A stretch of DNA of 25,121 bases. Source: a virus (lineage: Duplodnaviria; Caudoviricetes). Positions 7,259 through 23,091 of this stretch are shown in pieces (the first letter of the stretch is position 1; every line of letters begins with the position of its first letter). The notes beneath the pieces are model-generated. The model made no database searches and was not told where the DNA came from. It was given only the letters and a program-made list of their open reading frames with translations. A program made the translations under genes and the position numbers. Location of the stretch: positions 1 through 25,121 of the IMG/VR virus record IMGVR_UViG_3300014169_000022. One strand, given 5' to 3'.

Positions 7259-8749
7259 CTACATATACCGCGTTTTACGCGCAAAGTCTATCTGTTTGCG
7301 CTGATCTGCCGTAAAACCTGTATTTTTCACAAAATCTAAGCCTTCTATGGCGTACATTAAACTAGATGCGCCGTGCGAATTTTCGTCATGAAAGGGCTCT
7401 CTAGCCCAAAAGCCGGTACTTACCCACTTTTTGCGATAGTTGTCTAAGCATTTGATCCCAGCTTTACACTTTTCTACGTCGAACCAGCATCGATTAAAAT
7501 GGGTTCTAGCTAAGTCAATCGAAAGCTGAATGTCTGGCGTTCGTCTAATCACATCAAAATCTATGCCTAAGCGTCTTGCGAATTCTCTTCGAGTCAAACC
7601 GGTTTGGAGCTCATGTGCTTCGATATCATGGGGCGCAAAATGCTTAGCGTATTGATATGGCTTGTTTCTGATTAGCTCGATGTATTCCTGAAGGCTCTTG
7701 CCTTGGTCTTGATAGTAGTCAATGAAATGGATCTCCTGGCCGCATATCTGAAAAAACCAAATTGCTGTGTGATCTGAATAGCCTAAATCCCACGCGGTGT
7801 AAACAAGCTGCGATCGATCGAGCGGTACATGCGATATGCGATTCTGAGCTCTTGCTATCATCAATTGTGGGCCGAAGATAAGTCCCTCTTGTGAAGCTTC
7901 AAAAGCTTCAGCTGGCGTAGTGGGATATTCTCTCATCATATCTTCGCCAAGCGCTGCTTTTTTCTTTGTGTACCACACTTTTTGCGAAGGTCCTAAAATA
8001 ATGCCTGATTTTTCCAGTACATCAAAGTATTTTTCCGTCTCAACCGGTATGTAGACGGCTTCATCAATCTTGTAATCGGGCTCTTTGTACCAGGGAAAAA
8101 AGTGGAATTGATAGTCTAGTGTGGTAAGTTTTATCTTTGATTTGGCTGCGTCTTGAGCTTCTATGCACAAGTCATGAAAATGGCCTTCTCTGCCTTCTGC
8201 GGTGGATTCAATAAAGCAGATACCATTCTTTGGCACTGCTTCAATAGCGCCTGTGCGTATTTCTCTAGCCTTTTCAGGATACTTAGCGCATATCTTCCCG
8301 TATTCTGATACTAGCAGTCTCTGCAAGGTATCCCCACGCATCGAAAGTCCTACACGCAAGCTAGAACCGTTTGATAAGCTAAGTTCTGTCTGTGAATCGC
8401 GAATGGGGTAGATGATCTTTTTGAATGATTCGGGAAGGTTGTCATAAGCATATTTAACGCGTCTGAAGATTTTGCGAACGTCTTCCTCGGTATGTGCGAT
8501 GATACCGGCTTTCAGATCACTGGTGAAAAGACAATCGTCTAAAAAGAAAAGGCTTATAGCCGTTGTACAACCCAGCTGTCTAGCTTTCAGAATGACGTTT
8601 CTATACCAAATGTTTTGATATAACTCTATCTGAGCCCAGTTCGGCTGATAAGTGATCTGCTTTCCGTCCTTGTCTACTATCTTGTACATGCAAGACAGGC
8701 GCTTCCAACGATCTTTTATAAGCTCATCAACTGTAAAGCTGCTTGACAT
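7259..8749 (-). CDS. terL: terminase large subunit
   Basis: Walker A-like 'LKARQLGCTT', Walker B 'LLVSE', coupling motif 'ESTAEG', nuclease motif 'AWDLGYSD', also 'APHD'. Confidence 0.93.
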   Translation of the reverse strand: MSSSFTVDELIKDRWKRLSCMYKIVDKDGKQITYQPNWAQIELYQNIWYRNVILKARQLGCTTAISLFFLDDCLFTSDLKAGIIAHTEEDVRKIFRRVKYAYDNLPESFKKIIYPIRDSQTELSLSNGSSLRVGLSMRGDTLQRLLVSEYGKICAKYPEKAREIRTGAIEAVPKNGICFIESTAEGREGHFHDLCIEAQDAAKSKIKLTTLDYQFHFFPWYKEPDYKIDEAVYIPVETEKYFDVLEKSGIILGPSQKVWYTKKKAALGEDMMREYPTTPAEAFEASQEGLIFGPQLMIARAQNRISHVPLDRSQLVYTAWDLGYSDHTAIWFFQICGQEIHFIDYYQDQGKSLQEYIELIRNKPYQYAKHFAPHDIEAHELQTGLTRREFARRLGIDFDVIRRTPDIQLSIDLARTHFNRCWFDVEKCKAGIKCLDNYRKKWVSTGFWAREPFHDENSHGASSLMYAIEGLDFVKNTGFTADQRKQIDFARKTRYM

Positions 8750-9189
8750 TATGATTTCTTGATTGCTGATTCGCTCTTGTTAACGATCTCTTCCATAGCC
8801 TCGCGAGCACCGACTAAAGCTTCATTCTCTTGTTTCTTTAGAGAGCTTTTGAATCTAGATTCTGCGTCCTCTTCATCTCTAACTTCGCTGAAATAATATC
8901 TCAAGAATCTATGGCTTATTGATGGATTAACAGTGCCGTTGATATATTGTAGAGCTATTTCTCTCATTGCAATGTCATAATAGGGGACAAACTCAGGTCT
9001 CTTCGACATAGTATCAAAATCGCTTTTAGATATACCCATGTGACTACTATAGTATTCTGATATATGCATAGGTGAATTTTCTTCAATCCAGCTTAGCATA
9101 TACTCGCCCATTTTAATCATCTCTTCGGGCTCTAGAGATACTGTGCGCGGTCTTCCAATTCTCCTTTTTTTTACAACCTGTTCGGACAT
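8749..9189 (-). CDS. terS: putative terminase small subunit
   Basis: 146 aa with N-terminal 'GRPR' motif, directly upstream of and coupled to TerL. Confidence 0.7.
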   Translation of the reverse strand: MSEQVVKKRRIGRPRTVSLEPEEMIKMGEYMLSWIEENSPMHISEYYSSHMGISKSDFDTMSKRPEFVPYYDIAMREIALQYINGTVNPSISHRFLRYYFSEVRDEEDAESRFKSSLKKQENEALVGAREAMEEIVNKSESAIKKS

Positions 9190-9317
9190 TACTTACCTCT
9201 CTTTAGAACAGCTTTAAGAGTCTTTTTACTATGCTCGAATTGCTTAGTATCACCGTACTTTTTAGTGATAAACCTTTTAGAGGGAGCACGAGCGCTCGTG
9301 ACAGAGAATGAGTGCAT
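9189..9317 (-). CDS. 42-aa basic protein (not in ORF track)
   Basis: MHSFSVTSARAPSKRFITKKYGDTKQFEHSKKTLKAVLKRGK. SD GAGGT and TAATG coupling at both ends. Confidence 0.65.
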   Translation of the reverse strand: MHSFSVTSARAPSKRFITKKYGDTKQFEHSKKTLKAVLKRGK

Positions 9318-9454
9318 TACTTACCTCTCCCTCTAGCTTTACGTTGCATGCTGTAAGCAGCGGCTACAGATTGTTTTTCGGGATGACCTGATCTTCGCAT
9401 CTCAGCGATGTTTTCAGACAAGACTTTCTTTGATTTACCTTTCTTGAGCGGCAT
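9317..9454 (-). CDS. 45-aa basic protein (not in ORF track)
   Basis: MPLKKGKSKKVLSENIAEMRRSGHPEKQSVAAAYSMQRKARGRGK. Resembles a widespread small phage protein. First gene after the promoter. Confidence 0.75.
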   Translation of the reverse strand: MPLKKGKSKKVLSENIAEMRRSGHPEKQSVAAAYSMQRKARGRGK

Positions 9455-9474
9455 AGAGACTCTCTGTTAGAGCC

Positions 9475-9502
9475 ATGATACTAAAATGTTTATTTGAGTC
9501 AA
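9475..9502 (-). promoter_or_regulatory. promoter of packaging/head operon
   Basis: TTGACT-16 bp-TATCAT on the minus strand. Confidence 0.55.
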
Positions 9503-9506
9503 ATGA

Positions 9507-9588
9507 GAAAAAAGAGAACGTGGGCGGATCAGTGTCTTACGCTTGCCGAGCCTACGTTCTCTAAAATTCTAAGAGGCTAATCTTAGAT
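9507..9588 (-). ncRNA. candidate ~80-nt antisense sRNA (sRNA-1)
   Basis: Promoter TTGCAG(9618-9623)-17-TAAGCT(9595-9600), 5' hairpin UCUAAGA-UUAGCC-UCUUAGA, terminator-like stem 9513-9525/9550-9562 plus U-tract. Carries a 13-nt complement of the RBS at 9725-9737. Confidence 0.6.
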
Positions 9589-9638
9589 GACGCTAGCTTA
9601 ACGATTACCTATTTTTTCTGCAACATCCATTTTTTATA

Positions 9639-9667
9639 TTGCGCATAATTCTTGCATTTGTTATATT
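9639..9667 (+). promoter_or_regulatory. promoter of rightward early operon
   Basis: TTGCGC-17 bp-TATATT. Confidence 0.5.
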
Positions 9668-9737
9668 TATGACATACAAGCTATAGAGTTGCTCAAGAGC
9701 AATCTAGGGCGAGTTTTAAAACTATAAGAGGCTAATC

Positions 9738-9995
9738 ATGAAAAAACTAATTGGTGACACATATAATTTTCGAGAACAAATCAAATCAAGCGGCGGCAAA
9801 TGGGACTCTACACAAAAATGTTGGTTTGTGCCCGATGACAAATACGACGCTCTGCAAAAATTAGTTGGAGCGATAGATGATGGTTTAAAGCTGAATACGC
9901 AGTTATGGGAAGAATGTGAAATTTGCGGACAAGAGCCGATTTATCTAGAAGTTGGAGTTTGTGCTGCATGTGCACGAAAGGGGCGTCGAAGATGA
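9738..9995 (+). CDS. small protein, DUF5710-like N-terminus plus C4 zinc finger
   Basis: 'TYNFREQIKSSGGKWDSTQKCWFVP' pattern; CEIC...CAAC. Confidence 0.7.
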   Translation: MKKLIGDTYNFREQIKSSGGKWDSTQKCWFVPDDKYDALQKLVGAIDDGLKLNTQLWEECEICGQEPIYLEVGVCAACARKGRRR

Positions 9996-10201
9996 AAATA
10001 GACTTAGGTTGTAATATTAAAGAATCTTTTGGTCAATTAGAGCCGGGCGATGTTTTTCAAGTGTTAGGGCGTAATATTGTTTATTTAAAACTAGAATCTT
10101 CGATTGGAAAAGCGGTTGTTTTGGAAAGTGGAAAAATTCATGACTTTGACGATTTTACGATAATTAAACCCTTAAACTGCAAAGTCGTATTGAATCAATA
10201 A
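9992..10201 (+). CDS. hypothetical beta-rich protein (paralogue A1)
   Basis: Start at 9992 via ATGA overlap. Aligns with 10211..10438. Confidence 0.75.
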   Translation: MKIDLGCNIKESFGQLEPGDVFQVLGRNIVYLKLESSIGKAVVLESGKIHDFDDFTIIKPLNCKVVLNQ

Positions 10202-10210
10202 GGAGTCAAA

Positions 10211-10438
10211 ATGAAAATTTACTTATCAAGCAACGACAAAACTTTCAATCAACTTGAAGAGGGAGAGGTCTTTCACCTCTTCGATTCTTCAGCGATCGTC
10301 TACATGAAACTAGATGGTAACTACGGCAGTGAAGGCATAAACGCGACGGCTGTAAATATAAGTAGTGGGGCTTTAGTTTTCATCCACGATGCAACTAAAG
10401 TTAAAAAAATAAACTGCAAGCTTGTGTCGGACGAATAG
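10211..10438 (+). CDS. hypothetical beta-rich protein (paralogue A2)
   Basis: SD AAGGAG. Shares F.QLE.G.VF, IVY.KL and NCK.V motifs with the previous ORF. Confidence 0.8.
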   Translation: MKIYLSSNDKTFNQLEEGEVFHLFDSSAIVYMKLDGNYGSEGINATAVNISSGALVFIHDATKVKKINCKLVSDE

Positions 10439-10447
10439 GAGAGTAGT

Positions 10448-10705
10448 ATGAGACCCCTCGAACCCTTAGAAGATCTATCGCTAGTAGAAGAGCGAAAAGA
10501 GCAGTCTCGCGAGACCTGGATACAAGAGCATGCAGAGTCGCTATCTATGTACGACTACAACTATATATTTGATTTGACGGGACTAGACGAAAGCGAGATA
10601 CAAGACAAAATCTACTCTTACTGGGAAGAGCAATACGATAGAAGCGCGTCTTCATCGAAGCTCGAAGAAGAGCCGACTAGCGATGACGATTATTACTACA
10701 TTTAG
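10448..10705 (+). CDS. very acidic hypothetical protein
   Basis: SD AGGAG. 85 aa rich in D/E/Y. Confidence 0.75.
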   Translation: MRPLEPLEDLSLVEERKEQSRETWIQEHAESLSMYDYNYIFDLTGLDESEIQDKIYSYWEEQYDRSASSSKLEEEPTSDDDYYYI

Positions 10706-10724: not shown

Positions 10725-10997
10725 ATGAAACAAAATATAGAAAAAAAAGAGATAGAAGAACAAATAAATAATTTAGATTGTCGAATCTCTTTTCTCCAGA
10801 AAATGATTAATGAACTAGACGGTAAAGTAAGACGTATTCAAATAGAATCAGAGCACTTTCACTCTATGAACGAGTTGTTTAAAAACGAGATTTTAGCTCT
10901 AAAAAAATCATCGTTTAAAGAATCTATAAAATTTGGGGCTATTTCTGGAGTTATTTATGCTATTTTAGTTTTAATAATAAACTATATTTTTAAATAG
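10725..10997 (+). CDS. coiled-coil protein with C-terminal transmembrane helix
   Basis: Heptad-like N-terminus followed by GAISGVIYAILVLIINYIF. Confidence 0.7.
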   Translation: MKQNIEKKEIEEQINNLDCRISFLQKMINELDGKVRRIQIESEHFHSMNELFKNEILALKKSSFKESIKFGAISGVIYAILVLIINYIFK

Positions 10998-11101: not shown

Positions 11102-11146
11102 AAGCATTGTGTACATACCAGTGCACACAATGATCCTGGTGTATGG

Positions 11147-17291: not shown

Positions 17292-18221
17292 ATGACAACC
17301 CATTTTGAAATCCAAGAAGACATTCCAGACCACGCTTACAGAACAGAAATTCCCAATATAGTTTTTCACCTAGGGCTAGACCCTTACGAATTTTTGGTCT
17401 ACTCTCAAATAAAAAATATAGCTTGGGATAGGCGTTTTTGCTGCAAGAGCTACAAAGATTTAGCTAATTTACTAAAAGTCTCAGAAAGAAAAATTATCCT
17501 TGCCGTTCATAAACTTGAAGCCCCTTTCGAAAAGTTGGGTGGAAAATCTTTAATCAAAGTAGATCGAGATCGCAAGGATTCAAAAGGTGGTAATCTCCCA
17601 AATCTGCTGACTGTTACGAATATTTGGCGTATCAATGGTGAGTATTTCCGAAAAGATCAAGAAATTTCTAAGGTGGTGCACGAGGTGCAGGGGGGGGGTG
17701 CATGTGATGCACCAGGGGGGGTGCATATGGTGCACCCAGATAAAGATAATATAGAGAAGATAACTCACACACATACGCGCACGCGCGAGAGAGATCCACC
17801 CTTTTCGATCCCCAAGAAGAATCACGAGTTGGATGCAAATGGCTTGCCGGTCATAAACCTCAAGGACCAAGAACATGAACGCTTGATCGCAAACACGATT
17901 CAGCTGCACTCGAAATCCAGGGAGGAAGCGAAATGCATTGTGGACGATGTTATTCGCCAGTATCGGCTCACTTGCGGCTCAAATGGTCATGAGCATGAAA
18001 AACCCTACTACGCGATTTTGAAGTGGATCGATAAAGCTGTAAAAGACGAAAATGTGCGCAAAAAAAATCAATGCACGAGAGATAAACAGGTTAGACCGAA
18101 GTGGTTAGATGAACCGGAAATATATAAAGCTAAAACAGTTAGAGATTTGCCAATAGAAGAACTTAGAAAAATTGCTAGCGAAGATGAGATAAGGGAACTT
18201 TTAGGATATGGAACAAACTAA
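17292..18221 (+). CDS. replication initiator (lambda O-like, N-terminal winged HTH)
   Basis: N-terminal 'LDPYEFLVYSQIK...CCKSYKDLANLLKVSERKI' HTH, internal iterons, upstream of a DnaC-like gene. Confidence 0.8.
   Translation: MTTHFEIQEDIPDHAYRTEIPNIVFHLGLDPYEFLVYSQIKNIAWDRRFCCKSYKDLANLLKVSERKIILAVHKLEAPFEKLGGKSLIKVDRDRKDSKGGNLPNLLTVTNIWRINGEYFRKDQEISKVVHEVQGGGACDAPGGVHMVHPDKDNIEKITHTHTRTRERDPPFSIPKKNHELDANGLPVINLKDQEHERLIANTIQLHSKSREEAKCIVDDVIRQYRLTCGSNGHEHEKPYYAILKWIDKAVKDENVRKKNQCTRDKQVRPKWLDEPEIYKAKTVRDLPIEELRKIASEDEIRELLGYGTN
17675..17736. repeat. iterons of putative replication origin
   Basis: Three GGTGCA-N3-GRTGCA units at 17675, 17697 and 17720 separated by G-runs, followed by an A/T-rich tract. 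Confidence 0.75.
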
Positions 18222-23006: not shown

Positions 23007-23091
23007 TGCCTCGTGTAGGACTTGAACCTACGCATTAGATTTGTGCCCATGAAAGACACCAACTAAACTCTACCAACTGAGCTAACGAGGC
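23007..23091 (-). tRNA. atypical tRNA-like RNA (Lys-like body, elongated anticodon arm, no encoded CCA)
   Basis: Acceptor GCCTCGT/ACGAGGC+A, D-arm GCTC-AGTTGGTA-GAGT, T-arm GTAGG-TTCAAGT-CCTAC. About 12 extra nt in the anticodon arm. Confidence 0.75.

Follow-up and report, generated by a model that had tools for sequence, protein, structure and literature searches.

The ribosome-binding region of a small open reading frame, ORF 9738, is present twice in the window considered here, which is the whole 25,121-nt contig of an uncultured tailed phage from fresh water, and the additional copy, read on the opposite strand, falls in two predicted hairpins of a putative divergent small RNA. An antisense RNA laid over the ribosome-binding site is the best reading of this arrangement, because a promoter skeleton, a hairpin at the predicted +1, the repeat and a U-tract agree on the minus strand and are retained in a relative of about 90% identity, and on balance the unit probably acts as a lineage-specific antisense repressor of ORF 9738. 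We infer transcription, strand, pairing and repression from sequence, folds, statistics and this one relative. The unit was likely added recently, within this lineage alone, between two promoters that stand back to back.

A duplicated ribosome-binding site between two operons

The antisense-type unit occupies a 283-nt gap that separates two oppositely oriented gene blocks (Table 1). The head-gene operon, in which the gene annotation of the window places terminase large subunit, portal and major capsid genes, runs leftward on the minus strand; on the plus strand, a series of five small ORFs begins at 9738, with RecE/RecT-like, replication, DnaC-like and RusA-like genes in the right part of the window. 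A terminator-like hairpin on the minus strand at 11105-11132 lies where the recombination operon ends and faces the five-ORF cassette, a tandem 19/21 repeat at 17692-17736 within the replication-initiator gene possibly represents origin iterons, and a tRNA gene lies on the minus strand at 23007-23091 (Rfam RF00005). A related complete phage shows the same back-to-back layout, with a spacer of 157 nt and no antisense-type unit.

The capsid family to which this phage belongs is large, with 536 confirmed members among 600 pattern-matched viral stretches, and relatives of the capsid protein are mostly at about 50% identity among the 80 kept. Capsid matches were also found in 6 of 400 genomes of the phylum of a Simkaniaceae bin, which we take to be Chlamydiota, two of them on contigs of 137 and 223 kb. 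The 11 GTDB capsid matches stem from very mixed bins, and Chlamydiota are thus a likely host. Elsewhere in the family, the major capsid matches of L084 (204-1517) and L085 (8322-10612) come in two separated pieces, which suggests an intron or insertion, and a related phage carries a low-complexity, G/T-rich repeat array of about 300 nt (L130 9950-10300; L002 7900-8300).

The 13-mer TAAGAGGCTAATC occurs at 9570-9582 and again at 9725-9737, where it abuts ATG 9738, and it forms part of a longer repeat in which 19 of 21 nt are identical. Local dinucleotide shuffles of 9478-9740 reproduced the 19/21 repeat in 0 of 5000 trials and an exact 13-mer in 3 of 5000. Whole-window block shuffles gave a 19/21 repeat within 300 nt in 1 of 100 and an exact 13-mer in 22 of 100, and the 13-mer alone is for that reason weak evidence; within the same distance, the real window holds three distinct 19/21 pairs and three distinct exact 13-mers. 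It is clear that the 19/21 repeat is real and beyond chance.

Copy 2 looks like a true ribosome-binding site, since three of the eight chlamydial look-alike loci examined are start regions in register with an ATG. All seven pairs of the stem can form in copy 1, whereas copy 2, although it has the same loop and left arm, reaches a symmetry of just 4/7; RNA pairing therefore fits the repeat and a dyad operator does not. Duplications of ribosome sites are common in the phage family, being found at 9187/9315 in the window and in L085, L133, L145, L173 and L212, and in these other cases both copies precede a start codon. The pair in the window is an exact 15-nt minus-strand repeat (9187-9201 and 9315-9329) comprising ribosome-binding site and ATG, placed before the putative terminase small subunit gene and a 42-aa ORF, and for each of these genes the upstream stop overlaps the next start.

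Table 1. Features of the intergenic unit and of the genes on either side of it, in window coordinates.
Feature	Position	Strand	Description
Putative terminase small subunit	8749..9189	-	Position before terL; without PHROG match; weak matches in L161 and L171
First ORF of head-gene operon	9317..9454	-	45 aa; phrog_2423, E 5e-16
Predicted head-gene operon promoter	9475..9502	-	TTGACT-16-TATCAT, 10/12; 5 nt past U-tract
Predicted small RNA, ~81 nt	9508..9588	-	5' hairpin, 5-nt linker, long hairpin, U6
Long hairpin + U6, predicted terminator	9508..9562	-	13-bp base stem, 24-nt interior
Copy 1 of 21-nt repeat	9562..9582	+	Antisense segment when read on minus strand
5' hairpin	9568..9587	-	7/7 pairs; loop UUAGCC (9580-9575) with YUNR-type word
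Predicted small-RNA promoter	9595..9623	-	-35 TTGCAG (9623-9618), 17-nt A/T-rich spacer, -10 TAAGCT (9600-9595)
Predicted target-operon promoter	9639..9667	+	TTGCGC-17-TATATT with TG extension; 8/12
Predicted 64-nt 5' UTR of ORF 9738	9674..9737	+	Palindrome at 9689-9702
Copy 2, ribosome-binding region of ORF 9738	9717..9737	+	AAGAGG 9726-9731, 6 nt before ATG
Target ORF 1 (ORF 9738)	9738..9995	+	85 aa; DUF5710 (E 4.3e-7) + CxxC...CxxC
ORF 2	9992..10201	+	69 aa; start overlaps ORF 1 stop (ATGA); paralogue of ORF 3
ORF 3	10211..10438	+	75 aa
ORF 4	10448..10705	+	85 aa, acidic, no family match
ORF 5	10725..10997	+	90 aa; C-terminal hydrophobic segment, KD19 max 2.2; weak phrog_937 'hemolysin', E 7.4e-4

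The predicted small RNA, its pairing and its relatives

The promoter proposed for the small RNA ends 6 nt before the predicted +1 at 9588 and agrees with the E. coli consensus TTGACA/TATAAT at 6 of 12 positions, against 8 of 12 for the plus-strand promoter; a consensus scan of the window for promoters and terminators listed neither of these divergent promoters nor the terminator of the small RNA. It keeps TTG and TA...T around an A/T-rich spacer and is near the C. pneumoniae pattern (-35 TTGA, -10 TANNNT) given in the accessible part of PMC3333780. The window contains 72 such TTG..TA...T skeletons, which corresponds to a chance of about 1% of finding one in a given 7-nt slot. The predicted units run from 9588 to 9508 and from 9674 onwards, and their transcripts would not overlap because 15 nt separate the two -35 boxes. 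The palindrome in the predicted 5' UTR of ORF 9738 has 6-bp arms and a 2-nt spacer and is a possible operator; it is broken by a change at 9691 in the relative X4.

The 84-nt minus-strand segment folds at -25.7 kcal/mol (z -3.55), a value as good as which was reached by 0 of 200 shuffles. The loop of the 5' hairpin is predicted to pair with the spacer between the Shine-Dalgarno site and the AUG, and it contains a YUNR word such as occurs in several antisense loops according to the portion of PMC6562991 available; this word is lost in X4 and is weak evidence. In the long hairpin, 12 of 13 pairs form between 9513-9525 and 9550-9562 on the minus strand, enclosing 24 nt rather than a short loop, and a U-run follows the hairpins on the minus strand only. 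A search of Rfam, at the gathering score or E<=10, returned no family for the small RNA, one chance snoRNA row aside.

Beyond the 13-mer, pairing between the small RNA and its target extends over 11 more positions with 7 Watson-Crick pairs, 2 G-U pairs and 2 mismatches, the G-U part falling within the long hairpin. Among 43 start regions, that of ORF 9738 is the best partner, with a duplex of -24.7 versus -15.3 kcal/mol for the next and a net energy of -13.5 versus -6.1 kcal/mol, a rank that follows from the repeat itself and is not independent of it. When divergent start regions were scanned for upstream copies, the unit in the window came first of 141 (18.0; next 15.0). No clear site was found on either strand for a second target of the 24-nt interior of the long hairpin.

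Much of this anatomy had been proposed in a first-pass annotation made from the sequence. The two 13-mer copies with the second directly before ATG 9738, the minus-strand promoter TTGCAG-17-TAAGCT with +1 at about 9588 at the hairpin base, the target's own predicted promoter with transcripts that would not overlap, and the upstream pairing with G-U pairs and two mismatches are all borne out. A stem plus U-tract at about 9507-9562 was also described, and it is indeed there with its six U residues, but it encloses a long interior and the consensus scan missed it as a terminator. The proposal of a trans-acting repressor is supported in part by the agreement of the minus-strand features and their retention in X4, and weakened by the long hairpin, which favours the plus strand.

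A plausible course of events can be outlined. Transcription by the host housekeeping polymerase would start near 9588 and stop in the U-run near 9508, and first contact would be made by the 6-nt loop with GGCUAA, which separates the Shine-Dalgarno site from the AUG. The 5' hairpin would then open and the duplex spread over 13 contiguous pairs and on into the AU-rich upstream stretch (19/21), silencing ORF 1 by blocked ribosome loading; ORF 2 would likely follow, because its start lies in the ORF 1 stop. The long 3' hairpin may serve as terminator and stabiliser of the RNA and may also protect the head-gene promoter, which lies 5 nt beyond. The full proposition, in which a young RNA gene derived from its neighbour's duplicated ribosome site silences a non-toxin accessory operon without Hfq in a phage of Chlamydiota and, as its seed mirrors a chlamydial-type start region, could damp host mRNAs as well, can be offered only tentatively; no Hfq homologue is reported for C. 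pneumoniae in the part of PMC3333780 available.

Over the covered parts of 9494-9860, contigs of runs X3, X5, X6 and X7 match the window exactly, and X3 and X7 share its form near 9470-9510. The X4 contig is a relative of about 90% identity over 9508-9724, with 21 substitutions (19 of them listed) and 2 gaps in 217 nt; as it is a single contig at depth 2.7, its differences may include errors, and it ends at 9724, one base short of the target 13-mer. All 14 paired positions of the 5' stem are unchanged in X4. At 9553 an A-C mismatch in the long stem has become G-C, and the change at 9567 would have the same effect on an A-C mismatch with the target if 9722 is unchanged. Across 9589-9673 there are 13 changes, none in the 14 core letters of the two promoters (p 0.08), and those within the target promoter fall at non-core positions only. 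The loop of the 5' hairpin is altered, with 9579 missing and 9580 changed, which removes the YUNR word together with the pairs nearest the AUG unless the X4 target has changed too, and position 9558 of the long stem is absent. Divergence amounts to 5/71 in the RNA versus 13/85 in the promoter region, a difference that is not significant (p 0.13). Between 9504 and 9508 X4 carries 182 extra nt, beyond which it keeps 9477-9504 with the head-gene promoter, and X6, identical to the window right of 9508, differs from it on the left side, where a plus-strand TATAAT stands 6 nt before 9508. The X4 insert and the X6 divergence at this point suggest that the end of the U-run at 9508 is a module border.

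Searches for a second case of the RNA unit were carried out at several levels. Viral pattern scans gave 9, 18 and 0 matches, all judged from their flanks to be chance; BLAST against INPHARED phages gave short matches only, the best at E 0.3 among 20 of 25 matching records; and among the matches listed for 400 Chlamydiota genomes there were pieces of up to 61 nt. A covariance model, built from two identical copies and so amounting to a weak one-sequence model, found the window only in 100 sources (1.46 Mb) and nothing in 150 genomes. Geometry scans of the window with 101 related loci (3495 starts) and of 14 further related loci (689 starts) yielded no second case among loci that overlap and that in many instances fall short of the region before terS. 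Three candidates from these scans were set aside: that in L085 is a ribosome-site duplication, the match in L145 falls within coding sequence, and that in L254 is an A-rich repeat beside a palindrome. The L254 region (1975-2436) has a near-perfect palindrome of about 78 nt between two copies of a word of about 29 nt, with A-rich words before a gene, and is origin- or operator-like, and L128 has an operator-like 22-nt repeat at about 450-520, with 44-nt spacing, that overlaps a palindrome before a 282-aa gene.

The target cassette and alternative explanations

The product of ORF 9738 has no hydrophobic helix (KD19 max 0.9) and 405 relatives at E<=0.001, many of which match its DUF5710 part only. 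Its structure model is confident (pLDDT 85.6); Foldseek gave no match to it at E<=0.001, all Atlas matches fell under 0.9, and a PDB profile search returned weak zinc-ribbon matches only (uS14, E 7e-4). Two full-length homologues with DNA context, in L114 and L115, lie in mid-operon without an upstream copy, L115 offering just 306 nt upstream. ORF 2 and ORF 3 are tandem paralogues with 39% identity and weak phrog_7431 matches, ORF 5 is the only hydrophobic product of the operon, and PADLOC assigned none of the five cassette ORFs to a defence family. The target had been called the first early gene and possibly toxic in the first-pass annotation. It is the first of five small ORFs in the stretch from the head-gene operon to where the recombination operon ends, but 'early' is unsupported, and a soluble 85-aa protein with DUF5710 and four cysteines, whose homologues sit in mid-operon without the copy, gives no support to toxicity.

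Several other explanations of the unit have to be weighed. The main rival, so ranked because the plus strand gives the long hairpin a better fold and because of the TATAAT in X6, places the action of the hairpins on that strand, as a structured leader, a same-sense decoy of the ribosome site or an anti-antisense RNA, with a promoter left of 9508 in a longer haplotype. The plus-strand fold reaches -33.9 versus -25.7 kcal/mol, the long hairpin alone has a z of -4.73 versus -2.87 with 3 G-U pairs versus 0, and 9518-9552, in the interior of that hairpin, shows better pairing on the plus strand and no listed change in X4. Yet the window form, shared by X3 and X7, has no promoter skeleton near 9470-9510, neither hairpin is followed by a U-run on that strand, the ATG of a plus-strand mini-ORF at 9587 (MTLA) is lost from X4, and the X6 flank is known for just 18 nt; a plus-strand role seems unlikely. 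At pR'-tR' of phage lambda, the only promoter of the late operon yields a short RNA that terminates early unless an antiterminator lets polymerase pass, and a similar leader of the head-gene operon, the repeat being incidental or serving a second function, would suit a promoter, hairpins and U-run aimed straight into the terminase-portal-capsid operon. That operon nevertheless has its own predicted promoter, at 10/12 the stronger of the two, kept in X4 182 nt from the terminator; no antiterminator family was named among the 43 ORFs scanned on this contig, itself a fragment; the related phage has the same layout with its 157-nt spacer and no such unit; and a repeat that ends at an ATG is left unexplained, so that a leader of this kind likewise appears unlikely. 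Improbable too is the notion that copy 1 is the relic of a duplicated ribosome site whose gene was lost, beside an ordinary insulating terminator and without any regulation. Repeated ribosome sites before successive genes are indeed common in the family, and the in-register frame after copy 1 is open for 21 codons, but in the other family cases both copies precede a start codon, and neither the perfect 7-bp arm nor the promoter skeleton at the foot of it, nor the retention of both in X4, would be expected of a relic.

At the level of DNA, the two 21-bp copies might be sites for a protein, either an operator pair or terminase-binding sites near the packaging start, and a direct repeat 155 bp apart that flanks two back-to-back promoters and adjoins the putative terS would suit such a role. 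However, the copies agree in the loop rather than in the dyad arms (7/7 vs 4/7), neither overlaps a -35 or -10 box, and X4 shortens the shared part of copy 1 by one base, all of which makes protein sites quite improbable. An RNA that mimics a Cas9 guide, in the manner of vsgRNA or scaRNA, and silences at the DNA level is barely credible. About 20 nt of the small RNA precede a word that presumably resembles the start of a type II repeat, more closely still in X4, yet no anti-repeat closes a lower stem, no tracrRNA tail precedes the U-run, no tracrRNA or CRISPR-repeat match was found at E<=10, and beside the would-be PAM there is a mismatch and the flank continues the repeat. Phage vsgRNAs of 89 nt do exist, and their anatomy comprises guide, lower stem, tracrRNA tail and PAM-flanked target, as given in the available part of 10.64898/2026.06.01.729453.

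Comparison with known systems

The divergent antisense RNA preferred here has close parallels in layout. TimR/timP, tisB/IstR-1, zorO/OrzO, shoB/OhsC and dinQ/AgrB are adjacent, divergent, non-overlapping gene pairs, as here, in what is available of PMC7667032, PMC8594479 and PMC8167048, and the accessible text of PMC7667032 describes for TimR a complementary stretch (18 nt) upstream and on the opposite strand, within the 5' portion of the RNA and with a terminator after it. The small-RNA gene of the window is likewise 5' of its target and divergent without overlap, and it carries a short, near-perfect complementarity to the 5' UTR (13 contiguous, 19/21), then a hairpin and U6. Here the complementarity takes in the Shine-Dalgarno site and reaches the AUG; the TimR site, by contrast, lies more than 60 nt upstream (same part of PMC7667032). 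Type I toxins are hydrophobic peptides of less than 60 aa in the available portion of PMC8167048; the target here, in contrast, is soluble, 85 aa long and reaches a KD19 maximum of 0.9. A type I toxin gene would be expected to be paired with its antitoxin in homologous loci, and the homologues in L114 and L115 are without the copy. Unlike the type I loci cited, this is a phage locus, and no cross-species conservation was found for it. The likeness to tisB/IstR-1 and zorO/OrzO noted at first pass therefore holds for gene layout but not for the target, which is no small hydrophobic peptide, and the unit is not filed as a type I toxin-antitoxin system because it fails the hydrophobic-toxin test.

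Closer in biological setting are two regulatory RNAs of phages. C4 arises by processing from the operon that also holds its target and P22 sar overlaps its target antisense, whereas the unit here is divergent with its own predicted promoter and takes its complementarity from a separate 21-nt copy 155 nt away. Like C4 of P1/P7, it is a phage RNA that would pair near the ribosome-binding site of its own phage's mRNA through bases likely in loops (PMC12197685 and PMC8201110, in the parts available), and unlike C4 it is directed at a DUF5710 gene, not the icd/ant antirepressor operon, and has no Rfam match. Like sar (68-69 nt), as described in the accessible part of PMC12197685, it is a short phage RNA, here predicted, that would block translation initiation of a neighbouring gene. 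In the literature searched, mostly without subscription papers and without supplements, no paper was found on the element or the phage.

The mechanism class is already well known, and the unit represents a single lineage. If the antisense reading is true, the divergent layout of enterobacterial type I loci would extend to an accessory operon of a phage, where the target is soluble, and the unit would provide a clear example of a small-RNA gene born from a copy of its target's start region, as well as a compact RNA switch in a phage family that is large and uncultured and whose hosts are likely environmental chlamydiae. In its manner of working, as predicted here, the unit resembles TimR or P1 C4 and is not a member of the type I toxin-antitoxin family.
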